The notes under the pieces are model-generated. The model ran no database searches, was not told the origin of the DNA, and saw only the letters and a program-made list of their open reading frames with translations. From a virus, in the UHGV virus genome UHGV-0179801: a DNA stretch of 43,982 nt. The stretch is one strand, 5' to 3'. The position numbers and the translations under genes were made by a program. Below, one piece after another: positions 7,207-27,559 of this stretch; the first letter of the stretch is position 1; each line of letters starts with the position of its first letter.

Positions 7207-8679
7207 TTACTCCTGTTGCTGCTGCGCCGACTGCGGAATCTCTCCTGCTACCTGAGTAACAGCACCCAATGGCAACGGTGCATCTTCGATAGCGTTCTGA
7301 ATATCCTCGTCGGTCCAGTCGGTCACACCTGCCTTACGCAACGCCGCATAGTAAGCGGTAGCCGGTAGCAGGCCCGCGTTAATGTCCGCCATCCACTGAG
7401 CGCGGTCCTGGGCGGTCATCGGTTGCAGGAAGAACTCCATATTCAGTTTGAACTCAATCTCTGTGCCTTCACGCAGCCCAAGCATCGCCGCTACCCAGCG
7501 CAACGCATCTGTATACGCCATGCTTACATTACGTGCGATTGTCGCCATGACGGACGTATCCGCACCACGTTGCAGGCGGGCTGATTCGGCGGTGATTTGC
7601 TGCGTCGGGGTGATAAGCTGTGCGCCAATCTGAATTGCCTGATTCTCTTTATCCAGCATGTTCTGTTTGGCGAGGTTGTTCTCTCCCGCCTGAACCAGAA
7701 ACGCATTGCCGCCGTAGCCGATGTTATGGCCTGAACGAGACCCCATGCGCACGCCGTGTGGGTTAGCTTCTTTCCACTGTTCCATGCTCATGTTCTCACC
7801 TGGCGCAATGAACAGAGTGGGCTGGCCTACAACGAAGCTGGACTCCTCATTGTCCGCGCTGTTGCGGAAATGTCCGATATTAAGCTCAGCCAACGGCAGC
7901 AAAGGTGCATCATCAATGGTTGCGTCGTTGTTGCTCGCCCCAATGAACGTGAACGGTATTTTACCGCGCAGCTGTTCTCCGAGTTCCGGGAAGATTTCGA
8001 TTACGTCACCCTGAGCACCACCTTCGGCGTCGAAGCGGTAAATGCGCTGGCGGTAGCGCCCGTCAATCAAATCGAGAACGCGGTATTGTTCGCCGAATTT
8101 TGTTTCGAACTCCGCGCCCGGTTCTGAGTATTCCCACACCTCACGCAGCACGACCGTTGTCACACGGTTAACAGAACCGATGCGTGTCAGTCGCCAGTTG
8201 ATGATGTTCTCTGCGGTATAGAATGCGATTACCGGGTTTAATAACCCCGCGTTCTGCTCTGCCGCCGTTGCCGCGGCTGTCTCTGGGGCGTCCACCAGCA
8301 ACCCGCCGCGGCCAACCGAGTCAATCTCCATCAGCGTGTCCTGCGCGTGCTGCCACAACCCGACACCAGAACCGTCGGCATTACGTAACAGGTACTCCAG
8401 TTCAGGCGGGATAATTTGCTCGGGGTCTTTACGCATCACTGACCCCACCATCCCGGCCAGAGTACGTTTGGTGAAGTTGTAGCAGATAGCGCCGTTCTCG
8501 TATTCTTCCTGGCGCTGCGCAGCGTAGGTAGGCTCCGGCTCGTTCTTCCCGACGTTGCGAAGATAGCGGATAAGGTCGCCTTCCAGCGCGTGGCGTACCT
8601 TCTGCCATTTATCGAAGTGATGCAGCCATTCCCGGTGTTTTGTTTTAACACCCTGATTCTGACCGTTCATAGTTAACAT
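7207..8679 (-). CDS. portal protein
   Basis: 490 aa, AAGAGGA SD before ATG 8679; immediately downstream of terminase large subunit; size typical. Confidence 0.8.
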   Translation of the reverse strand: MLTMNGQNQGVKTKHREWLHHFDKWQKVRHALEGDLIRYLRNVGKNEPEPTYAAQRQEEYENGAICYNFTKRTLAGMVGSVMRKDPEQIIPPELEYLLRNADGSGVGLWQHAQDTLMEIDSVGRGGLLVDAPETAAATAAEQNAGLLNPVIAFYTAENIINWRLTRIGSVNRVTTVVLREVWEYSEPGAEFETKFGEQYRVLDLIDGRYRQRIYRFDAEGGAQGDVIEIFPELGEQLRGKIPFTFIGASNNDATIDDAPLLPLAELNIGHFRNSADNEESSFVVGQPTLFIAPGENMSMEQWKEANPHGVRMGSRSGHNIGYGGNAFLVQAGENNLAKQNMLDKENQAIQIGAQLITPTQQITAESARLQRGADTSVMATIARNVSMAYTDALRWVAAMLGLREGTEIEFKLNMEFFLQPMTAQDRAQWMADINAGLLPATAYYAALRKAGVTDWTDEDIQNAIEDAPLPLGAVTQVAGEIPQSAQQQQE

Positions 8680-18023: not shown

Positions 18024-18057
18024 CTTTAAATTCCTTATGTCTCGTTGCTATAAGTGA

Positions 18058-18086
18058 ATAGTATCCTATTATATTGGTGTGTGCAA
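18058..18086 (-). promoter_or_regulatory. type-A promoter/operator cassette, leftward early
   Basis: Minus strand TTGCACACACCAATATAATAGGATACTAT; plus strand also reads TTGCTA-N16-TATTAT (18045..18072). Confidence 0.6.
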
Positions 18087-18158
18087 GAGAGTAGTTACGC
18101 TGCCGTTGTGATTCTTCAGGTAGGGTTGTGCCTTTATTCTTATTACTTGGTAACTAAA

Positions 18159-18179
18159 GGGCAGGCCTTAAGCCTGCCC
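18159..18179. other. 8-bp GC hairpin in control region
   Basis: GGGCAGGC-CTTAA-GCCTGCCC; only weak T-tracts on either strand. Confidence 0.5.
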
Positions 18180-18267
18180 GGTAAGGGTTACATTTTTACG
18201 GTTGCGAATCTACGGCACTTTAATAAAATCAGATACTTAAGAGATATGCCGCCGATGAAAATAGAGC

Positions 18268-18280
18268 TTGCCCAGGGCAA
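18268..18280. repeat. 13-bp palindrome TTGCCCAGGGCAA
   Basis: Read directly in non-coding control region. Confidence 0.7.
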
Positions 18281-18334
18281 CCGGAGATACTTAGAAAGGA
18301 AAGTTACGATAATTCTTGTGTTCAGTAAACTTTC

Positions 18335-18367
18335 GCTTAACCCTTTGCTTAACGCACGGTTTAAGCG
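18335..18367. repeat. GCTTAAC x2 direct plus inverted TTAAGCG
   Basis: 18335..18341, 18347..18353, 18361..18367; could form alternative hairpins or act as iterons. Confidence 0.5.
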
Positions 18368-18456
18368 GTTTTACAAGGTGAACAAGAATCAAAGTAACTA
18401 AGATATAGAAGCACCTTAAACGAAGATTTTCATAATGTCAATAGGTGTGATTATGT

Positions 18457-18485
18457 TTGATTTCCCATTATTCGCAATGTATACT
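18457..18485 (+). promoter_or_regulatory. rightward early promoter TTGATT-N17-TATACT
   Basis: Good sigma70 match about 30 nt upstream of the first rightward gene. Confidence 0.55.
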
Positions 18486-18517
18486 CGATTTTGTTAACTG
18501 ATAATGAGGGTTTGAGA

Positions 18518-18688
18518 ATGACACAGAATGAAGTAGCCGAGCGTATCGGTGTTACTCGTCGCACGCTGAATAACTGGTTAAAGAGTGGGAAGTTCCCTGA
18601 TTGTTGTATTCGCATTATGGGCCGCCGTCAGCCAGGTACGTTTGACCGGGAGAAAGTGGAAGCGTGGATTAAGGAGAACGTGAAATGA
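18518..18688 (+). CDS. small HTH DNA-binding protein (56 aa, AlpA/excisionase-like fold)
   Basis: ORF 18491..18688 trimmed to ATG 18518 (GAGGG SD); MTQNEVAERIGVTRRTLNNWLKSGKFP. Confidence 0.65.
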   Translation: MTQNEVAERIGVTRRTLNNWLKSGKFPDCCIRIMGRRQPGTFDREKVEAWIKENVK

Positions 18689-18918
18689 CCGAGTTTCAGT
18701 CACGGGTATTTACGGCGGTCGTTTCGTTAACGCATAAAAAAGGGTCGTGCAGCGTTATGGACTTGCGCCGTAGTTATTTTAGGTACTATAGTTCCGCCAT
18801 TATTGAAGGGTCGTTACGTGTACTGGTTAAATCTGGTGTCGTGAAAAACGTTGGCGGGAAATATAGTGCCGTTGCCGAAGTTCGCGGAATGACATCTACT
18901 TTAGAAGACCTGGAATAA
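18685..18918 (+). CDS. hypothetical protein (77 aa) ending ...STLEDLE
   Basis: ORF track, ATGA coupling; shares C-terminal EDLE with two replication proteins. Confidence 0.6.
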   Translation: MTEFQSRVFTAVVSLTHKKGSCSVMDLRRSYFRYYSSAIIEGSLRVLVKSGVVKNVGGKYSAVAEVRGMTSTLEDLE

Positions 18919-18976
18919 AAGAAAGCCCCGACGCGGTGAACGCCGAGGCCAAATTACTTGCTGAAGGAATTATAAT

Positions 18977-21244
18977 ATGTCCGATGTAATTTTATCCTAC
19001 TCGTGGTCCCGCCGCAACGCGCGGGCGGAGAAAAAGGATATAAACGTCAGAACCACACACATGGCAACACTGGACGACCTGAAAGAGTTAATCCAGCCGC
19101 TTGATGCCGTGCGTGACGGGATTAACCCGAAGACAGCGCCCGGCTATATCACTGCCGCGTGCGACTCAACGCACAGCACCGTAAAAGACCCGGAAACAGG
19201 TGACTTTAAGCAGGCGCGTAAAGGTTTCTTTTATCGCTGTGACGCGTCTGTAAGCAAATCGTCGCTGGCGTATCTGGACTTCGACAGTGCAACACCGGAA
19301 GAGTATCAGGAAGCGGTGCGCCTGGTTAAGCGCAGCCGCCAGGCTATGTGCCTCTATACCACGGCATCTCATACCGATGAGTCTCCGCGCTTTCGTGTCG
19401 TCATGCCGCTGGCGCGCCCGGTTGAAGGCGGAGACATCATCCGAGTTCGCCACGGATTGCTGGAGCACTTCTTCAAAGGCATGGGCGCGGACCGCAGCGG
19501 GTTTACCTTGTCGCAGCCGATGTACCTGCCGCCGGTTGGTGCTACTGTTATCTGGTCGCGCCGCAACGACCTGATTGACCCGGACGAGTTACTGGAAGGC
19601 ATCCCGGATTACGAGGTGAGCAGCGCATCGGATTACCAGATACCAGAGGAACTGCGCACCGCGTTTACTGACGCGTTCGAGGCACTGGCGTTTGAGTACG
19701 GCGGCATCATGACACCACGCGGCCTTAAGATGCCAGCTACACCGAAACACGCAGAGAACTACAGCGACCCGACGCCGAGGCCAGATGACTTCCTGCTGTG
19801 CTTCCCGCGCGAAGGGTACGAAGCGCCGAACGTAACAATGATTCACGACACCGACATTACAGCAACCGAAGGCATGTTGCCGAAAGAGGTGTGGAAATAC
19901 GCGTGCGATGCGACCGGGCTGCCGTTCAGTGAAGTCGCAGAGGCCATCGGCTGGGGTGCACGAGAATCTGTCTCATGCAGCCTGGACGACCTGGAAGACG
20001 AGGATGACTCAGAGGAGGACGAGCTACCGGAACCGGTAAAGGCTGATTTCGTCGTAGAAGGGTACATGCCGTCGGATTGCATATGGGATATCGTCGGGGA
20101 ATCTGGCACGTACAAATCGTTCTATACTCTGGGGATGATGTACCTTAGCGCCGCCGGATACCGGTTCGCAGGGGCTGATACCCAGCGTTGCCACCATTTC
20201 TATATTGATGGTGAAGGTGGTGCGGCTACACGTACACGTATTGACGCACTCGCCGCTAAATATGGTGAGGAAGGTAAAGATTATGTACACGTCATCGACA
20301 TGGGTGAAGTCGGAAAACTGAAAAGCCTGATTAAGCTGATGCGAGAAACTGCGGGTGACGAGCCAATTGGGATGGTCGCGTTTGATACCCTCAACCAGAC
20401 GCTGGCCCTGACGATTGATAAGTTCGACGAGAACAGTTCGTCAACGGCAATCGGCATGGGTAAAGTTATCGCCATCCTGAAAGAAGTACGCGATGCAACT
20501 AAAGCCGCGGTAGGCGTCGTACACCATACGCCGAAGGGTGGAAAGAAAGCCCGCGGCAGCGGGGCATTGTATGCAGGTGTTGATGTGGAACTGACAATCG
20601 AACGTGCTACCGACCGCCAGATAAACGTATACCACTCGAAATTTAAGCACGGGCCACAACAGAAAACGGTTGGGATGGTGCTCGAGTCGGTACAGTTCCG
20701 TGAAGCGCCGCCGCCGAAAGAGTACCGCGCGGTTGAGTTCATCGGTAACACAGAGGAATATGGAACAATCGTAAACCTAGACTTGCCCGAGCCGCACAAA
20801 GCGCTTGTTCTGATGCCGTGGGGCTTCGAGCCGTTCAAAACTGACGAGGAGAAAGAGCGGGAAGAAGGGCTGACGAAGGAAGGTAAAGAAAACGTACGTA
20901 AAACCGTAGAGAACGTCGTCAACAGTTCGGAGGCCACGATACTGGCAGCGTTTGAACTGGCGGAAGGAACCTACAACGGCAACGAAGGTATCACGGTAGC
21001 CGCAGCTAATAAGCTCGCACAGTCCGACCCCAACGCAAAGGCGTTTAACTCCAAAGAAGCTATAGAACGTGGGAAGATTAAGAAAATGGTTGAGGCTGGA
21101 TATCTTGTTCCGGGGACTGACGAAAACAATCAGATAATCCCAGGCCGTTACAGGCTGAACACCCGAATAACCGATAACAAGATTCCGAAGACAATATACG
21201 AACCGAATGAAATGTTAACAGTGACAGAGGAGGATTTGGAATGA
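18977..21244 (+). CDS. primase/helicase (primase-polymerase-like N-domain + RecA/RepA-type ATPase)
   Basis: 755 aa; YLDFDS and RFRVVMPLARP in N-half; Walker A GESGTYKS, Walker B VAFDTLNQ, VHHTPKGG; acidic linker; ends EEDLE. Confidence 0.8.
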   Translation: MSDVILSYSWSRRNARAEKKDINVRTTHMATLDDLKELIQPLDAVRDGINPKTAPGYITAACDSTHSTVKDPETGDFKQARKGFFYRCDASVSKSSLAYLDFDSATPEEYQEAVRLVKRSRQAMCLYTTASHTDESPRFRVVMPLARPVEGGDIIRVRHGLLEHFFKGMGADRSGFTLSQPMYLPPVGATVIWSRRNDLIDPDELLEGIPDYEVSSASDYQIPEELRTAFTDAFEALAFEYGGIMTPRGLKMPATPKHAENYSDPTPRPDDFLLCFPREGYEAPNVTMIHDTDITATEGMLPKEVWKYACDATGLPFSEVAEAIGWGARESVSCSLDDLEDEDDSEEDELPEPVKADFVVEGYMPSDCIWDIVGESGTYKSFYTLGMMYLSAAGYRFAGADTQRCHHFYIDGEGGAATRTRIDALAAKYGEEGKDYVHVIDMGEVGKLKSLIKLMRETAGDEPIGMVAFDTLNQTLALTIDKFDENSSSTAIGMGKVIAILKEVRDATKAAVGVVHHTPKGGKKARGSGALYAGVDVELTIERATDRQINVYHSKFKHGPQQKTVGMVLESVQFREAPPPKEYRAVEFIGNTEEYGTIVNLDLPEPHKALVLMPWGFEPFKTDEEKEREEGLTKEGKENVRKTVENVVNSSEATILAAFELAEGTYNGNEGITVAAANKLAQSDPNAKAFNSKEAIERGKIKKMVEAGYLVPGTDENNQIIPGRYRLNTRITDNKIPKTIYEPNEMLTVTEEDLE

Positions 21245-21555
21245 ATATTTACGATTTTATAGATAATCCGTTTAGAGCAGTGAAGGCAGGATACCGCCCA
21301 TCGTACCTGACTTGTGTTTCTTGTGTAGCTCACCAATGGGGTGCTGTTTGCAAGCTGGCGCTAGAGGAAGTTACAGAATTGCGTCATGTTATGGATATGA
21401 CGTTAAAGGAAATTGTAGCGTGTACCGTCCACATTGTTTTCAGAACTGCAGCTGTGGTTAGTTTTCCGTTAAGCGTATGGCTTTTTGCGTGGATTCAGTA
21501 CCTGAACGTGCAACACACGATTAAGAATATGGAAGAGCTCGATAAGTTGCTATAA
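21241..21555 (+). CDS. membrane-associated hypothetical protein (104 aa)
   Basis: ORF track, ATGA coupling; hydrophobic VHIVFRTAAVVSFPLSVWLFAWI. Confidence 0.55.
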   Translation: MNIYDFIDNPFRAVKAGYRPSYLTCVSCVAHQWGAVCKLALEEVTELRHVMDMTLKEIVACTVHIVFRTAAVVSFPLSVWLFAWIQYLNVQHTIKNMEELDKLL

Positions 21556-21584
21556 AAAAAAAATAAAGGGGCGTTAAGCCCCTT
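21553..21584 (-). terminator. intrinsic terminator of the Cro-like gene
   Basis: Minus strand AAGGGGC-TTAAC-GCCCCTT followed by TTTATTTTTTTTTT; 5' arm overlaps the last codons. Confidence 0.75.
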
Positions 21585-21789
21585 CACCAAACGCCAGCCA
21601 CTTTGCGTCTACTTGCAGCACTTCCGCCAGCTTGAACAGCGTCGCTGGACGTACGTCCTGAGTTACCCCAAGTGCCAGCTGGTTAATCGCGCCCTGGGAA
21701 ACACCGGCCAGGACAGCCAGACGGCGCTGGGAGATGCCGAGTTCTTTGCGGCGTTGTTCTACACGGATGCCTAGTTCAGATGGTTGCAT
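21574..21789 (-). CDS. XRE/Cro-CI-type HTH transcriptional regulator (71 aa)
   Basis: RRKELGISQRRLAVLAGVSQGAINQLALG is a classic HTH_3 pattern; only minus-strand gene within the rightward arm. Confidence 0.8.
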   Translation of the reverse strand: MQPSELGIRVEQRRKELGISQRRLAVLAGVSQGAINQLALGVTQDVRPATLFKLAEVLQVDAKWLAFGEGA

Positions 21790-21820
21790 GTCAATTACTC
21801 CTTAGTTAGTTGATATGTGA

Positions 21821-21849
21821 ATAGTACCATATTAATTATTTTAGAAAAG
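21821..21849 (-). promoter_or_regulatory. degenerate type-A promoter of the Cro-like gene
   Basis: -10 TACTAT with ...AATATGGTACTATTCAC; -35 poor (TTTTCT/CTTTTC); half-degenerate dyad AATAGtaccATATT 21820..21833. Confidence 0.35.
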
Positions 21850-21853
21850 CCCA

Positions 21854-21883
21854 TTGACATCATGAATAGTTCGCTATTATAGT
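21854..21883 (+). promoter_or_regulatory. type-B promoter/operator (TTGACA-N18-TATAGT)
   Basis: TTGACATCATGAATAGTTCGCTATTATAGT; dyad AATAG-N4-CTATT at 21865..21878. Confidence 0.6.
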
Positions 21884-21913
21884 TAGCCCATACCAAACGA
21901 GAGGAGAGACAAA

Positions 21914-22063
21914 ATGATTAACAACCGCAAAGCAAAGATTCTGTTAGGCCTTGATATTGCATTTGGGGCTAAAGAAACCGCACGCTATCGCGTAAGCAAC
22001 AATCGTGTGGGCTTCTTCGACAAAGCAACAGGCCAGTTAGTTAAAACCGTTAAGTATAAATAA
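21914..22063 (+). CDS. hypothetical protein (49 aa)
   Basis: Hand-found: GAGAGGAGAG SD, ATG 21914, MINNRKAKILLGLDIAFGAKETARYRVSNNRVGFFDKATGQLVKTVKYK. Confidence 0.5.
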   Translation: MINNRKAKILLGLDIAFGAKETARYRVSNNRVGFFDKATGQLVKTVKYK

Positions 22064-22078
22064 ACAGGAGAGAAACAA

Positions 22079-22531
22079 ATGTTAGAACAATTTCTTAAAT
22101 TACTGGAACGTTTCGTAGTTGCACATGAACTGATTGCCGCGAACAGTGTGAAACAAGTTGTCGTTGCTGAAACTGCAACAATCGCGCCTACTGTTGCAAC
22201 AAAAGAAATCCCGGTCGAAGGTGAAGACGTAGTTGACACTAAACCGGCAGAAGAAGAGAAGCCGAAACGCAAGCCGCGTAAAGCTAAAGTAGAGGAACCT
22301 ACGCCAGAGCCAGAAGAAGAAGTCGACTACCAGTCTCTGCGCGACCAGATTCAGGCTATCGATGATGCCATTAACGAAGGTCCGAGCGATGCCGCGTGCG
22401 ACGATTCTGATGAACTGCTGGAAGAGTTCACGGGTAAGAAGATGAAGATTGCTGCGATTAAAGACGAAGACCTGGCCGAGTACCTGGAGCGCCTGACGGC
22501 AATCAAGAACAAGTATTTCGAAGAAGAATAA
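22079..22531 (+). CDS. strongly acidic protein (150 aa)
   Basis: ORF track; AGGAGA SD; Glu/Asp-rich, ends KYFEEE. Confidence 0.65.
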   Translation: MLEQFLKLLERFVVAHELIAANSVKQVVVAETATIAPTVATKEIPVEGEDVVDTKPAEEEKPKRKPRKAKVEEPTPEPEEEVDYQSLRDQIQAIDDAINEGPSDAACDDSDELLEEFTGKKMKIAAIKDEDLAEYLERLTAIKNKYFEEE

Positions 22532-22535
22532 CTAT

Positions 22536-22557
22536 CCCGCGGCCTTCGGGCCGCTTT
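22536..22557 (+). terminator. hairpin terminator
   Basis: GCGGCC-TTCG-GGCCGC then TTTAAA. Confidence 0.45.
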
Positions 22558-22574
22558 AAATGAGGGTCGGAATT

Positions 22575-22910
22575 ATGAACTACGAAAATTTAACAGACAT
22601 AGAAATTAATGCACGCGTCAGCCGCGAGCTATACGGCAATGTTTCGCGAGGGCATCAGATGGAATTAGCTTCTGGTGATGTTGATTATTGCAACCGCGTT
22701 GAAGACGCATGGCCTGTTATCACCGGTAACAACATCTCGATTGTAGCTACCGATTCAGAATGGATTGCTTTACCGGATAATGCGGTTATTGACGGTATTA
22801 CCGGAGACGCCACCAGTATGATTTACGTTGGTGACGAATGCGTTATCGGCGAAAACCCTCTACGCGCCGCCATGATTGTATTTCTGAAAATGCGGGAGAA
22901 GGCGCAATGA
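22575..22910 (+). CDS. DUF2591 / NinX-like protein (111 aa)
   Basis: ORF 22560..22910 trimmed to ATG 22575; N-terminus MNYENLTDIEINARVSRELYG resembles NinX-family starts (memory). Confidence 0.5.
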   Translation: MNYENLTDIEINARVSRELYGNVSRGHQMELASGDVDYCNRVEDAWPVITGNNISIVATDSEWIALPDNAVIDGITGDATSMIYVGDECVIGENPLRAAMIVFLKMREKAQ

Positions 22911-23179
22911 TTTACCAACTCTACCGCGCCGTAGACAGGCGGGATAACACAGAGGCGCTATGGCTGTTACGTGCGCCGTCAGGGGCGCACCTGATGGAAG
23001 AGATGGCGTACTTAGGCAAAGTACCTCGGCCTAAAGATATAGGCCGTCACGTGTCGCAGATTAAGCGCACGACTTTCGCAAAACCTGACTTCTATGTCTT
23101 CGAGTCGATGTACAGCTGGGCCTTGCATTGCGACCATAAGACACAGCATTTAATCGACCAGTGGGAGAACAGGGTATGA
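22907..23179 (+). CDS. hypothetical protein (90 aa)
   Basis: ORF 22838..23179 trimmed to ATG 22907 (ATGA coupling). Confidence 0.55.
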   Translation: MIYQLYRAVDRRDNTEALWLLRAPSGAHLMEEMAYLGKVPRPKDIGRHVSQIKRTTFAKPDFYVFESMYSWALHCDHKTQHLIDQWENRV

Positions 23180-24417
23180 TTCTAAAAGAACGCGGCGGCA
23201 ATAACGATGTGCACGCCTTATTGTCACCATCAGGCGCTAAAAAGTGGTTAAGTTGCGCCGCATCACTGGCCTGTGAAAAAGATATTCCTAACACGTCCGG
23301 TAAAGCAGCCGTTACAGGAACCGCGTGTCACACTATAGCTGAGGTCCATCTAAACCAGTACATCAAAGGCACTGCGCTGCCGTTAGAGCGTGAAGTCGGT
23401 GCCTACGTGCTGGATGAGGGTAAAGGCCAGATTAAGGCGCTAATCAGCCCGATGAAAGGCGCTGTACTGATTACGGCGGACATGATTGAGCAAGTGCGCA
23501 AGTACACCGACTACTGCAAACCGATTATTGACGTCGCGACTTATGCCAAGCTGGAAATGCGCGTCAATCTTACTGAGGTATTGCATCCTGGTTATGAAGA
23601 CGTCGAGACGTTCGGGACAGCCGACCTTGTTGCCGTTCAGGAGCTGGCTAACTCCGACGAGCACATGCTTATCGTCGGCGACCTTAAAACCGGACGGCAT
23701 CGTGTCGAAGCGAAAGAAAACAAACAGCTTATGCTATACGCTCTCGGTGTTTATCGCCGACTCAAGAGACGTTATAACATCACCGTGGTTCGTCTGGTCA
23801 TCTTCCAGCCCTACGCTGGTGGTGCGTCGGAGTGGGACATCTCGGTTGAAGGCCTTGAACTGTTCGCTAAGTTTGCGCAGAAACGCGCACTGTTAGCTCT
23901 TGATGCGTATTTCCGTGGTAAGAAGAACCTGAAAGCATCGGATTTCAAGCCGTCTGTCGATGGTTGTCAGTGGTGTCGGTTCTCTGAACAATGCGCCGCG
24001 CGTACAAAGACGGTTAATTCTGTACTGGCAGAAGAACTGGAAGACGACTTTGCGCTGGAACTTACACCAGAGCAACTCGTAGCTGAGTATGAGAAGTTGC
24101 CGTTGTTGCGCCAGCACATCGACAAGGTTGAGAAAGCTATGGCCGCCGCGTTGCATTCCGGTAAGAAAGTGCCAGGGTACAAGCTGGTTGAAGGTAAGAT
24201 GGGCAACCGTGCGTGGAAAGACGCGGAGAAAGTGGCAGAACTGTACGGCGACAAGCTGACTAAAGAAGTGCTCATGACACCGACCGAAGCGGTTAAAGTA
24301 ATACCGGAAGAAGAACTGAAAGACTTCATTACCCGTAAGCCTGGCGCGCCATGCGTCGCAACGGCAGACGACAAACGGCCTGAATGGAATCAGGTTAGTG
24401 AAGAAGATTTGGAATAA
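23176..24417 (+). CDS. DUF2800 PD-(D/E)XK, Cas4-like nuclease
   Basis: ATG 23176 (ATGA coupling); LSPSGAKKWLSCAASL N-terminus, DLKTGRH..EAKENKQL core, CQWCRFSEQC Cys cluster; ends SEEDLE. Confidence 0.75.
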   Translation: MILKERGGNNDVHALLSPSGAKKWLSCAASLACEKDIPNTSGKAAVTGTACHTIAEVHLNQYIKGTALPLEREVGAYVLDEGKGQIKALISPMKGAVLITADMIEQVRKYTDYCKPIIDVATYAKLEMRVNLTEVLHPGYEDVETFGTADLVAVQELANSDEHMLIVGDLKTGRHRVEAKENKQLMLYALGVYRRLKRRYNITVVRLVIFQPYAGGASEWDISVEGLELFAKFAQKRALLALDAYFRGKKNLKASDFKPSVDGCQWCRFSEQCAARTKTVNSVLAEELEDDFALELTPEQLVAEYEKLPLLRQHIDKVEKAMAAALHSGKKVPGYKLVEGKMGNRAWKDAEKVAELYGDKLTKEVLMTPTEAVKVIPEEELKDFITRKPGAPCVATADDKRPEWNQVSEEDLE

Positions 24418-24421
24418 AGTG

Positions 24422-24450
24422 TTGACACCTGAATAGTTAGCTATTATATT
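24422..24450 (+). promoter_or_regulatory. type-B promoter/operator (TTGACA-N17-TATATT)
   Basis: TTGACACCTGAATAGTTAGCTATTATATT. Confidence 0.6.
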
Positions 24451-24516
24451 CTAATCACTGGCCGGGCAGCTCCCGGAGTAAACTTTGAAATATAAACTGA
24501 AAAGCGAGAAATCAAG

Positions 24517-25146
24517 ATGGGCATTAAACTGAATCTGCGTAAAGTAAACACTGCATGGGTTAACGTATTCGAACGCGCTGCCGACTCTGAGGACAAGAAA
24601 ACCGGTAAACTGATTAAGGGTAAATACCAGGTTACGGTTCTTATGCAGCCTGACCACCCTCAAATCGACGCGCTTTACGACACCGCGCTGGAAGTTGTAA
24701 CAGAGGCAATCGGGACCGCTGCTGCTGAAAAATGGATGAAGGCCAACTACGGTGTAGACCACCACGCAGATAAATGCTGCGTCCGTGACCTGGCAATGCG
24801 GGATAATCCGATTGAGGATTTTGAAGAAGGTCTGTATTTCCGCGCCACTAACAACCGTCAACCGGTGATTATGACATCGGCTAAAGGTGAAAAACAAACC
24901 GAGCCTGATTTCAACATCGATGGGCAGGAAGTAGAAGGCGAGCAGGTGTACAGCGGGTGTGTAGCAAACGTATCTGTAGAGTTATGGTGGCACAAAGAAT
25001 GGAAAAACCTGTGCGCTACCATCCTCGGCATCAAGTATGCTGGTGAAGGTAAACGCTTCGGCGGCTCCAGTGTAGTAGCGAGCACCGACGACCTGGAAGA
25101 CGACGAAGAAGATGGAGCACCACGCCGCGAACGTCGCCGTCGTTAA
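24517..25146 (+). CDS. DUF2815 ssDNA-binding-like protein
   Basis: 209 aa; position between DUF2800 nuclease and PolA as in the known module; tail STDDLEDDEEDGAPRRERRRR. Confidence 0.65.
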   Translation: MGIKLNLRKVNTAWVNVFERAADSEDKKTGKLIKGKYQVTVLMQPDHPQIDALYDTALEVVTEAIGTAAAEKWMKANYGVDHHADKCCVRDLAMRDNPIEDFEEGLYFRATNNRQPVIMTSAKGEKQTEPDFNIDGQEVEGEQVYSGCVANVSVELWWHKEWKNLCATILGIKYAGEGKRFGGSSVVASTDDLEDDEEDGAPRRERRRR

Positions 25147-25202: not shown

Positions 25203-25361
25203 ATGATGTTTTTCTGTAAGCACGTTTATCGCTATATGAAACCGCTTCCGTGGTACGCGGATGAGTACCGGGCCGGGTACGGGCATGTGTGGATTTGCCG
25301 TGATTGTATGAAAATAAGACTCAGCGAAACGAAGGCACTGGATTTAAGGAAAAAGAAATGA
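25203..25361 (+). CDS. small Cys-rich (zinc-ribbon-like) protein (52 aa)
   Basis: Hand-found: ATG 25203, MMFFCKHVYRYMKPLPWYADEYRAGYGHVWICRDCMKIRLSETKALDLRKKK; ATGA-coupled to polymerase start. Confidence 0.45.
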   Translation: MMFFCKHVYRYMKPLPWYADEYRAGYGHVWICRDCMKIRLSETKALDLRKKK

Positions 25362-27559
25362 GCTATTTATACCTGGACTTTGAAACATTCTCCGAGGCCG
25401 ATTTGAAGAAAGTCGGTTCCTACGCTTACGCCGAACACCCAACCACAGAAGTGCTTATCTGTACCTATGCTTTTGACGACGAGCCTGTGCAGGTATGGGA
25501 TTGCACCGACGGCAGCGACATGCCAGGTGATTTACACCGCGCGTTACGCCGTCTGGTGAAGCTGAACAGCCACATTAAGATGGTGTGGCATAACGGCTCA
25601 ATGTTCGATCGCCTCATCATGAAACACTGCTGGGGTTTTGATATTCCGGTAAGCAACACCATTGATACGATGATTTGGGCGTTTCGTCACGCGCTGCCGG
25701 GTTCTCTTGATGCGTTGTGCGAAGTGCTTGGCGTATCTGCTGACAACGCGAAAGACAAACGAGGCAAGGCGCTGATTCAGCGTTTTTCTAAACCGACACC
25801 GAAGAACTACAAAATCCGCCGTTACACCGCAGAAACACACCCGGACGAGTGGGCGTTGTTCATCAAGTACGCTGTGAGTGACATCACCGCGATGCGCGAA
25901 GTATTCCATAAGCTGCCGCGTTGGGGTAACTCAGAGTTTGAAGACCGTGTACTGGAACTGGACCAGCTAATCAACGACCGCGGGTTTAAGGTTGACGTCG
26001 CACTGGCAGAAGCCGCGATTGAAGCCGTGGAGAAACACAAGGCACAGTTACAGGAAGAAGCCCAACGTAAATACGGCGGCTCGCTTACCGGAAATGACTT
26101 CCTTCCGATTCTGCGTGAACTCGCACCGGCGCACCGTATTCACAACGCGCAGAAGTCTACACTTAACGACCTGCTGGCGGACGATGATTTACCTGACGAC
26201 GCCCGGACGATTATCGAAATGCGCCTCGGGGCGGCGTCTACTGCGTCAACGAAATATAACCCGCTGCTGTTGGGTCGCTCGTCTGACGACCGTCGTCGCG
26301 GTTGCTTGCAGTACGGTGGGGCGAAACGTACTCTGCGATGGGCAGGTAAAGGCTTCCAGCCGCAGAACCTGGCACGCGGTTACTATCACGATGATGAGCT
26401 GGATAAAGGCATTTCGGCGTTACTTAAGGGCCGCGCCCATCGCCGTTTCGATGTAGCCAAGCTAACGGCATCGACGGTTCGTAGTTGCATCATACCGGAA
26501 GCCGGGCACAAGTTTGTCGTAGCTGATTACTCTAACGTCGAAGGTCGGGGGCTTGCGTGGTTGGCTGGTGAAGAAACCGCGCTCGATACCTTCCGCGCCG
26601 GGTTGGATATTTACTGCGTAACCGCGGGCAAGATGTTCGGCATGGACCCTGATGACATTAAGAAAAACTTCAAGGAAATCAGACAGATAGGCAAGGCATG
26701 CGAACTTGGCCTCGGCTACGAGGGGGGCGTAGGTGCTTTCGTTACGTTTGCTAAAAACTTAGGTCTTGACCTTATTGAGATGGCAAAAACAATGGACGGG
26801 ACTTTCCCCGACCACATCTGGGCTGCTACCGCACGTGGGTATGAGTGGGCGCGTATACAAGAAGCAAAGCGCCCTCCACATCCAGGTGAAAAGGATGACA
26901 GACCATCGTATATTCTGGACAAGAAAGTGTGGCGCACATGCGATGCGATCAAGCGTATGTGGCGCGAGTCACACCCGGAAACAGTAGCGTTCTGGCGCGA
27001 CCTTAAAGACGGAATCTTAGCCGCTGTTCGTAATCCTGGACGTGAATTTTGGGCGGGGGCACACTTGCGCAGGAATGGGGAAAGGGCGATCCGCATATGG
27101 CGTAATGTAGAATTTGATTCGTCCGGTAGGAAGGTTCCGGGTTGGTGGTTGTGTGTGGAGTTGCCGTCAGGCCGTATCCTCTCGTATCCGGGAATTGGGG
27201 TTAGTGTGACAAAGGAAACAGACGAGGACGGACGGGTGAACACGAATGTGCGAATCAAGTATCAAGGCGAAAACCAGTTAACCCGCCAATGGACCACCCT
27301 GTACACACACGGCGGCAAAGCCTGTGAAAACATTGTCCAGGCGCTGTGCCGTGATTTACTCGCATATGCGATGATTAATGTTGAGGGCGGCGGGTACCCC
27401 ATCGTGCTTTCGGTACACGATGAACTGGTATGTGAAACTCCAGATACAGCGGATTACACGGTACATGATCTGGAAAAATTAATGTGCGCGTTGCCTAAGT
27501 GGGCAGAAGGCTTCCCTCTTGTAGCGGAAGGTCAGGAGTTAAAACGCTATGCTAAGTAA
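25358..27559 (+). CDS. family-A DNA polymerase with 3'-5' exonuclease domain
   Basis: ORF 25304 (TTG) trimmed to ATG 25358 (AAGGA SD); 733 aa; Exo I YLDFETFS; SVHDELV motif C-like. Confidence 0.9.
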   Translation: MSYLYLDFETFSEADLKKVGSYAYAEHPTTEVLICTYAFDDEPVQVWDCTDGSDMPGDLHRALRRLVKLNSHIKMVWHNGSMFDRLIMKHCWGFDIPVSNTIDTMIWAFRHALPGSLDALCEVLGVSADNAKDKRGKALIQRFSKPTPKNYKIRRYTAETHPDEWALFIKYAVSDITAMREVFHKLPRWGNSEFEDRVLELDQLINDRGFKVDVALAEAAIEAVEKHKAQLQEEAQRKYGGSLTGNDFLPILRELAPAHRIHNAQKSTLNDLLADDDLPDDARTIIEMRLGAASTASTKYNPLLLGRSSDDRRRGCLQYGGAKRTLRWAGKGFQPQNLARGYYHDDELDKGISALLKGRAHRRFDVAKLTASTVRSCIIPEAGHKFVVADYSNVEGRGLAWLAGEETALDTFRAGLDIYCVTAGKMFGMDPDDIKKNFKEIRQIGKACELGLGYEGGVGAFVTFAKNLGLDLIEMAKTMDGTFPDHIWAATARGYEWARIQEAKRPPHPGEKDDRPSYILDKKVWRTCDAIKRMWRESHPETVAFWRDLKDGILAAVRNPGREFWAGAHLRRNGERAIRIWRNVEFDSSGRKVPGWWLCVELPSGRILSYPGIGVSVTKETDEDGRVNTNVRIKYQGENQLTRQWTTLYTHGGKACENIVQALCRDLLAYAMINVEGGGYPIVLSVHDELVCETPDTADYTVHDLEKLMCALPKWAEGFPLVAEGQELKRYAK

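Follow-up and report, generated by a model that had tools for sequence, protein, structure and literature searches.

The window analysed here is the whole 43,982-nt sequence of UHGV virus genome UHGV-0179801, a Kagunavirus-like siphophage, and the element in question is a short acidic peptide, ending in EDLE, that recurs on proteins of its replication arm. This 7-kb arm shares ~88-92% identity with many phages of E. coli, Shigella and Klebsiella, and matches Salmonella Jerseyvirus as well. On the plus strand the window encodes a 77-aa protein (18685..18918; phrog_5169, function unknown), a replicative primase-helicase (18977..21244; phrog_3228, with an AAA_25 domain at residues 348-522; Pfam and PHROGs matches), an acidic 150-aa protein (22079..22531; phrog_3127, function unknown), a DUF2800 nuclease of the PD-(D/E)XK type (Cas4- or AddB-like; 23161..24417; Pfam PF10926, residues 18-407 of 418), a T7-type single-stranded DNA-binding (SSB) and annealing protein (gp2.5/Enc34-like, DUF2815; 24517..25146; Pfam PF10991, E 1.3e-10) and a family A DNA polymerase with a 3'-5' exonuclease domain (PolA; 25304..27559 by Pfam, likely start ATG 25358). 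The last three genes adjoin (23161-24417, 24517-25146 and 25304-27559) and form the duf2800-gp2.5-polA module, which was named and described in PMC8093625. The same order of nuclease, SSB and polA is seen in the comparison loci L001-L084.

Across the six reading frames of the window there are exactly five occurrences of the peptide [ED]DLE, each in a replication gene on the plus strand. Three of the copies are C-terminal: the 77-aa protein ends in ...TSTLEDLE (TLEDLE, 18898-18915; open reading frame (ORF) and motif scan), the primase-helicase in ...TVTEEDLE (TEEDLE, 21224-21241; motif scan) and the DUF2800 nuclease in ...VSEEDLE (SEEDLE, 24397-24414; motif scan). The other two are internal, and lie in the acidic stretch that links the primase and helicase domains (SLDDLEDEDD, 19979-20008; motif scan) and in the SSB (STDDLEDDEEDG, 25081-25116), where the copy is followed by the basic stretch APRRERRRR (25117-25143). 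The DNA pattern GARGAYYTGGAATRA, common to the three tails, matches 3 times in the window versus 0.06 expected, a number reached in 0 of 100 shuffles, and a C-terminal tetrapeptide common to three proteins never arose in 20,000 residue shuffles of the 79 likely genes. The shared tail is a real observation, far beyond chance. A first-pass annotation of this DNA, made from the sequence alone, had quoted these peptides, a shared DNA spelling of the three tails and internal copies in the SSB and the primase linker; all of them are present at the positions it gave.

The copies do not follow the bacterial SSB C-terminal consensus (D-D-D-[IL]-P-F-COOH): the tails end in EDLE, and the SSB copy is internal, the SSB itself ending in RRERRRR. 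Beta-clamp binding motifs (QL[SD]LF-like) begin with Gln and have a hydrophobic LxLF core; 0/5 copies contain Gln or a second hydrophobic residue. C-terminal degrons (ssrA-like LAA, MuA-like) carry a non-polar or basic C-terminal tripeptide, and the termini here are acidic (DLE).

Conservation was followed in a comparison set of 79 viral loci plus five individually fetched phage records. Among relatives the tail peptide is kept while its Leu codon is TTG, TTA, CTG, CTT or CTC, the Asp and Glu codons vary, and the stop is TAA, TAG or TGA; in the primase-helicase tail alone, Leu is TTG, TTA, CTG or CTC with all three stops in use. In the window, a GAGGA Shine-Dalgarno sequence and part of the next gene's ATG (21241) sit within the last codons of the primase-helicase, GAG GAT TTG GAA TGA (21224-21255). 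This overlap of stop and ATG is not conserved, because relatives have TAG or TAA stops there, and among the three C-terminal copies it is peculiar to the primase, the other two ending 59 and 100 nt before the next start codon. The motif is also retained in loci with a different gene order, including loci with the primase gene on the opposite strand. Because codons and stops vary while the peptide is kept, the motif appears to be a selected peptide and not a DNA signal, and by this comparison the tails are under peptide-level selection. The gene starting at ATG 21241 encodes a 104-aa protein (phrog_2638, function unknown).

The motif is largely confined to particular proteins. In L-type lineages, that is, those with Leu as the hydrophobic residue of the motif, C-termini of the form xDL(x0-3) were found on 66 of 989 likely genes, versus 13 of 3339 shadow ORFs (non-coding frames that overlap genuine genes). 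All but one of the 66 are DUF2800 nucleases (29), primase-helicases (28) or the 77-aa protein (8), and the primase-helicase ends in this way in 28/28 matched ORFs of these loci.

The variant of the motif differs between phages, and its forms on the proteins of one phage resemble each other. Dhillonvirus has SDEDLDN on the SSB, TDEDLSNE on the nuclease and TDDDLKD on the primase, and Serratia phage Smarc3 has ...THEDLE on the primase-helicase and ...SDEDLA on the nuclease. The tails of another Serratia phage, Scapp, read DDFDEL (SSB), SDFENLE (nuclease) and EEFEELE (primase), and those of Staphylococcus phage SAP8 AEDDFDEL (SSB) and AEDDFDKL (nuclease). Locus L047 pairs DDFDDV..AESLI on the SSB with NDFDDVEAAESLI on the nuclease, and L073 pairs DAQYLDD with DADYLTD. 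In the Enc34-like Providencia phage Stilesk (Casjensviridae; L083, 972-10774), the SSB (DAWDEDDD..DDEV), exonuclease (GAFDDEDDDDDEV), primase (SPFDDED) and SNF2-type helicase (EVWDDEE) all end in aromatic-plus-D[DE]ED tails. Terminal DDEV is common to the SSB and exonuclease of this phage, and a 125-aa hypothetical protein ends in DDDEEI. Across the set, nuclease and SSB tails from the same locus have a mean similarity score of 24.6 versus 20.4 for tails from different loci, and the observed mean was reached in 0 of 20,000 re-pairings. Judged from these alignments, the motif variant co-varies among the proteins of one phage. The motif is present in phages of Proteobacteria and Firmicutes, and probably extends to other phyla.

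The SSB indicates where the motif comes from. A single-sequence phmmer search with the window SSB gave no match in PDB, and a family profile was needed; this profile matches PDB 5ODJ, 4JG2 and 4KLK at E 1e-32 to 1e-38, which places the protein among the gp2.5/T7-type OB-fold SSBs. It aligns the motif to TSDAYDEDE in Enc34 ORF6 (5ODJ), AADDFTTIE in 4JG2 and AESDFGD in 4KLK. In every lineage examined the motif stands directly after a conserved DGEAFGG block, and reads VASTDDLEDDEED in the window, CSDEDLDN in Dhillonvirus, ANDDDLDD in L018, NADDFDELDE in Scapp and ASEDDFEDLS in distant lineages. Kaguna, Jersey, Smarc3 and Dhillon phages have the Leu type, and the other lineages the Phe type. As both types occupy the same place after DGEAFGG, the Leu of DDLE takes the position of the Phe in DDFED. 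On this evidence the EDLE tails are homologous to the SSB-tail motif, and are the local Leu-type version of a module-wide motif, typically [AS]x[DE][DE]Φ[DE][DE], where Φ is F, L, Y or W. The first-pass annotation had taken a terminal pentapeptide as the conserved unit. The tail is kept in orthologues at 30-60% identity, but the motif is not primarily a terminal pentapeptide; it is the Leu-type form of the SSB-tail motif of the whole module.

The SSB tails of Leu-type lineages and Scapp (L001, L003, L018-L030) continue into one to four alternating acidic and basic blocks, e.g. DEDDE-PRKRRR. The window SSB has a single PRRERRRR block (25117-25143), and Phe-type lineages are without the extension. 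It might add DNA binding or multivalent self-association.

In the DUF2800 nuclease the tail lies outside the domain, since the Pfam model stops at residue 407 of the 418. With relatives of 413 aa, the start is probably ATG 23176, not GTG 23161. At least 120 close homologues were listed, all 95-98% identical; deep conservation was judged from 150 family representatives clustered at 50% identity, of which 145 are full-length. D416 and L417 are invariant in 11 sequences at 40-59% identity. Most of the 150 representatives have a conserved DKRPA, a short variable linker, and then an acid-flanked hydrophobic motif, which reads [ST]D[DE]DL among the closer relatives and D[DE]F[DE]D[LVI] among the more distant. 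An acid-flanked F, Y, W or L is found within the last 25 aa of 81% of the full-length proteins versus 32% of internal control windows, and under a strict definition in 44% versus 4.6%. Cysteines C32, C269, C272 and C278 are invariant across the family, and match the Fe-S cluster pattern of Cas4/AddB-type nucleases. The metagenomic nuclease P0133 (758 aa) has an extra 350-residue N-terminal region without a Pfam match, and keeps the tail ...TDDDLSD. When P0133 and other long DUF2800 proteins were considered as Rosetta-stone fusions, the DUF2800 domain was the only one recognised. A Bas14 homologue was reported in 2026 as a type IX retron trigger.

The second copy in the primase-helicase, in the linker, is also kept at the same place, as C[ST]x[ED]DL: TCDEEDLADEE in Jersey phages, CTLEDLDD in Smarc3, CQDEDLMDE in L022 and CTDADLDNE in Dhillonvirus. 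From their composition and variability, both linker and tail are predicted to be disordered. In distant lineages the motif is found at the C-terminus of Prim-Pol/PriCT_2/D5_N (SF3-type) primase-helicases, whose Pfam domains differ from those of the AAA_25 type; an iterated hidden Markov model nonetheless links the two types at 1e-12 to 1e-36. In a single-sequence AlphaFold2 (AF2) model of the window protein (mean predicted local distance difference test score (pLDDT) 33), the only region with pLDDT >55 is a helix and two strands before the tail (residues ~700-727; 20990-21160).

The 77-aa protein is predicted by AF2 (pLDDT 85) to consist of a winged-helix domain and a disordered tail, with helices H3-19, H24-30 and H37-50, a hairpin at 53-62 and low pLDDT at residues 63-77. 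The best Foldseek matches of the model are winged-helix domains (MotA, LexA N-terminal domain, MarR/IclR; TM 0.6-0.74, with weak E-values). Its tail is kept in Kaguna and Jersey relatives as T[LP]EDLE with varying codons. Residues ~700-727 of the primase-helicase resemble the recognition-helix-plus-wing end of this protein, and hhalign places them in the same register, although not significantly (probability 3.5%). The possibility that the 77-aa protein is a paralogue of the primase-helicase C-terminal domain plus tail was rejected (no BLASTP match, and the same hhalign probability). A second small carrier is an 83-96-aa XRE-type helix-turn-helix (HTH) protein beside the primase gene, which keeps the C-terminal motif in six loci (L035, L037-L040, L053; ~8150-8490, minus strand), with tails TEGYFEDLTQEENAE, SEDDFEDLTQEENAE and PKEFDDLSESK. 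These carriers parallel the winged-helix 77-aa protein, and are a second case of a small DNA-binding protein with a replisome tail. In the window, the intergenic stretch 18024-18490, 5' of the HTH and 77-aa genes, could plausibly hold a promoter or an origin, and GC and AT skew reverse sign near 18 kb, at the switch from minus-strand to plus-strand genes.

A further internal copy, KDEDLAEY in the acidic 150-aa protein, had been suggested by the first-pass annotation. The peptide is present (22460-22483), but is probably no true copy: in other lineages this position reads EDDDVEDF or DDDQVDEF, and it lies inside an apparent helical domain. A better candidate in this protein is DDSDELLEEF (22400-22429), the counterpart of an internal A.DEFDDLLE.F in relatives from Dhillonvirus, Smarc3 and L018-L031, which has the same form as the Phe-type SSB-tail motif. 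The protein also has an aromatic-acidic C-terminus, KY[FY]EEE or YFELED, in all lineages (22508-22528 in the window). The protein could be a further client of the same receptor, or compete for it.

With high probability, from the conservation pattern, the tails are a shared docking motif. The balance tips slightly towards a fuller reading, in which the copies of the Leu-type SSB-tail motif are interchangeable docking peptides and the OB domain of the SSB is their most likely receptor. The motif would have arisen in the T7-type SSB of the phage, in its disordered C-terminal tail, and the five copies would compete for one phage-encoded receptor site, a tail-binding groove on the concave beta-sheet and N-terminal strands of the SSB OB domain. 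The helicase-primase, the resection nuclease and the small DNA-binding protein would in this way be tethered to SSB or SSB-coated DNA, and could pass SSB to new single-stranded DNA (ssDNA). PolA may offer a second receptor, as in T7. Both the binding function of the peptide and the identity of the receptor are inferred. The first-pass annotation had likewise proposed a shared docking tail, and much of this stands, as the tail is conserved at 30-60% identity, co-varies, and recurs on a different primase architecture; the hub it invoked is still an inference.

The OB domain gains structural support as receptor because the motif aligns by homology to a segment that docks in a published crystal. 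In the Enc34 SSB crystal the last 11 residues are disordered and the visible chain ends in ...TSDAYD, and this TSDAYD segment docks in a groove on an adjacent SSB molecule; the N-terminal strands take part in the contact, which can coexist with bound ssDNA (PMC5686142). Similar tail contacts are described in other DUF2815 structures (4JG2, 4KLK) and in T7 gp2.5 (PMC5686142). In addition, E. coli phages of different genera (Kagunavirus, Dhillonvirus, T7) have different variants, each consistent within one phage. Such genus-specific variants in a single host suggest that the receptor is probably phage-encoded, not a host protein.

Taken by itself, the choice of the SSB OB domain as main receptor is tentative, with somewhat less than an even chance of being right by this structural analogy, and several points weigh against it and the fuller reading. 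The Enc34 contacts, as given in the text of the paper, are crystal packing, and the authors left their biological role open (PMC5686142). The biochemically established receptors of such tails in T7 are basic patches on the polymerase, and PolA is the one core replisome protein that is always without the motif, as expected of a hub. Docking in the same pocket is an extrapolation, because Leu and a terminal Glu are found here versus aromatic residues in the solved SSBs. Finally, the co-variation could partly stem from shared ancestry, or from gene conversion between tails.

Two other hubs had been put forward by the first-pass annotation, which did not consider the SSB OB domain favoured by the published crystal contacts. 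One was the basic tail of the SSB, which is confined to Leu-type lineages and Scapp; as most lineages with the motif do without it, the basic terminus was rejected as a universal hub. The other, a DnaN fragment, finds no counterpart, as no DnaN-like gene was seen among the 20 ORFs of the replication arm and early region covered by a non-exhaustive scan.

The best-surviving alternative is that the tails of the SSB, primase-helicase, nuclease and winged-helix protein bind basic patches on the family A polymerase, as in T7. Polymerases would thereby be recruited or exchanged at the fork as well as on recombination intermediates. The acidic tails of T7 gp4 bind two basic patches of gp5, one at the front and one in the thioredoxin-binding domain, in competition with the gp2.5 tail (bioRxiv 10.64898/2026.05.20.726333; PMC13402713). 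The T7 tails of gp2.5 (ESWDEDDEE...DGDF) and gp4 (STDWSNDTDF) are related and acidic, each with a Trp and ending in Asp-Phe. PolA, or a polymerase-like protein, adjoins the SSB gene in loci that extend far enough, and PolA never carries the motif, its C-termini being RYAK or YRYRKD in all loci. A conserved basic stretch in the PolA family (residues 148-173, numbered from the 25304 start) is a lead to a candidate binding site; however, it could simply bind DNA. Docking on a polymerase is also without precedent for a nuclease or an HTH protein, and the crystal contacts in three DUF2815 structures favour the SSB instead. Loci without a PolA match have a 590-620-aa protein after the SSB gene (L045, 12645-14414; L050, 11841-13637; L062, 10371-12236), which has a weak PolB-exo2-like match only in L045 and L062 and no Pfam match in L050, and is presumably a divergent polymerase. 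As a polymerase-like protein occupies the same position, these loci do not discriminate between the hubs. The polymerase appears an unlikely main receptor, although one that deserves real weight, and it and the SSB are not mutually exclusive.

It is improbable that the tails act in cis as autoinhibitory DNA mimics, each folding onto the DNA-binding surface of its own protein as in gp2.5 and gp32, with their likeness reflecting a common need for negative charge. Every carrier is a DNA-binding protein, ssDNA and the gp2.5 tail of T7 compete for the OB fold, and deletion of the Enc34 ORF6 tail unmasks double-stranded DNA binding (PMC5686142). However, charge alone predicts neither the invariant hydrophobic residue nor the fixed [ST]x[DE]DΦ register, nor the recurrence, within one phage, of a single lineage-specific variant on three or four proteins of unrelated fold. 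Capture of a host protein through mimicry of a host peptide, such as the bacterial SSB C-terminus DDDIPF, is less probable again. Some distant SSB and nuclease tails, ending in DLF, DDLF or EDFPF, do resemble that C-terminus, but the EDLE tail is without a Pro-Phe terminus, phages of the same host (E. coli) differ in their variant while each is self-consistent, and the motif is found in phages of at least two bacterial phyla. The last explanation, that the shared 15-mer is a regulatory, ribosome-binding-site or recombination element, or a coincidence, can be dismissed: the three DNA copies are alike and the primase copy overlaps the Shine-Dalgarno sequence and ATG of the following gene, but the other two lie 59 and 100 nt from the next start codon, the motif persists despite changed gene order and strand, the permutation probability of chance is ~0, and free codon and stop variation with the peptide kept rules out a signal in the DNA.

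The principle behind docking on the SSB, that replisome proteins compete for one site via a shared acidic-hydrophobic tail, is already known from T7 and, in reversed form, from bacterial SSB. The T7 gp2.5/gp4 tails, which the first-pass annotation had cited as precedent, are a valid one, as related tails are found on the gp2.5-type SSB and the primase-helicase. In both systems similar acidic, disordered tails with a key conserved hydrophobic residue are found on an SSB of gp2.5 type and on a bifunctional primase-helicase, and the tails probably compete for one receptor and coordinate the replisome. However, this residue is Leu here, followed by a final Glu, versus a terminal Phe in T7, the SSB copy is internal before a basic extension, and the primase linker holds a second copy. 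Carriers here also include a recombination nuclease and a small winged-helix protein, whereas the T7 gp6 exonuclease is without the motif, and the polymerase receptor is established in T7 while the receptor in this phage is a proposal.

The DUF2815 crystal structures (5ODJ, 4JG2, 4KLK) belong to the same SSB family, and their TSDAYD, AADDFTT and AESDFGD correspond to STDDLED here, the Enc34 segment aligned to the motif being the part reported to dock on a neighbouring OB domain. The papers describe the SSB's own tail only, not the motif on nuclease, primase-helicase or other proteins. The bacterial SSB C-terminal tip (DDDIPF) is likewise a short acidic-hydrophobic peptide on a disordered tail, serving as a hub signal in replication, repair and recombination. 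However, its consensus and SSB fold type are different, and there the SSB bears the peptide and the enzymes bear pockets, whereas here the enzymes bear the SSB-like peptide. In exonuclease-annealase pairs (lambda Exo-Red beta, RecE-RecT), as in the duf2800-gp2.5-polA module, a resection nuclease stands beside an ssDNA-annealing SSB, and physical coupling is expected. Coupling via a shared SSB-tail-like peptide was not found described for this module in the literature searched. The same holds there for module-wide sharing of the motif (SSB, DUF2800 nuclease, two primase-helicase architectures, SNF2 helicase, small DNA-binding proteins), for a second copy in the primase linker and for the Leu-type variant ending in Glu.

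As a speculation, held with low confidence, the motif may be a module-wide 'SSB-tail code', with the SSB both bearer and receptor. Each enzyme that makes or processes ssDNA (two primase-helicase architectures, the resection nuclease, the Enc34-like SNF2 helicase) would carry a copy of the SSB tail, and could cap, nucleate or ride the SSB filament. The winged-helix and HTH proteins would be origin- or promoter-bound initiators, or decoys timing the switch from replication to recombination, and the Leu-type SSB extension might add multivalent, condensate-like assembly.

The duf2800-gp2.5-polA cassette, known from Enterobacteria, Staphylococcus, Streptococcus, Bacteroides and others, is among the most widespread for replication and recombination in tailed phages and prophages. 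For such cassettes the motif would be a sequence-readable map of replisome membership, which gives unannotated small proteins such as the 77-aa protein a probable role in replication, and would extend the T7 principle of tail competition to recombination nucleases. A DUF2800 nuclease and the T7 SSB trigger retron defence systems, and the interaction peptide may help explain sensing and escape.

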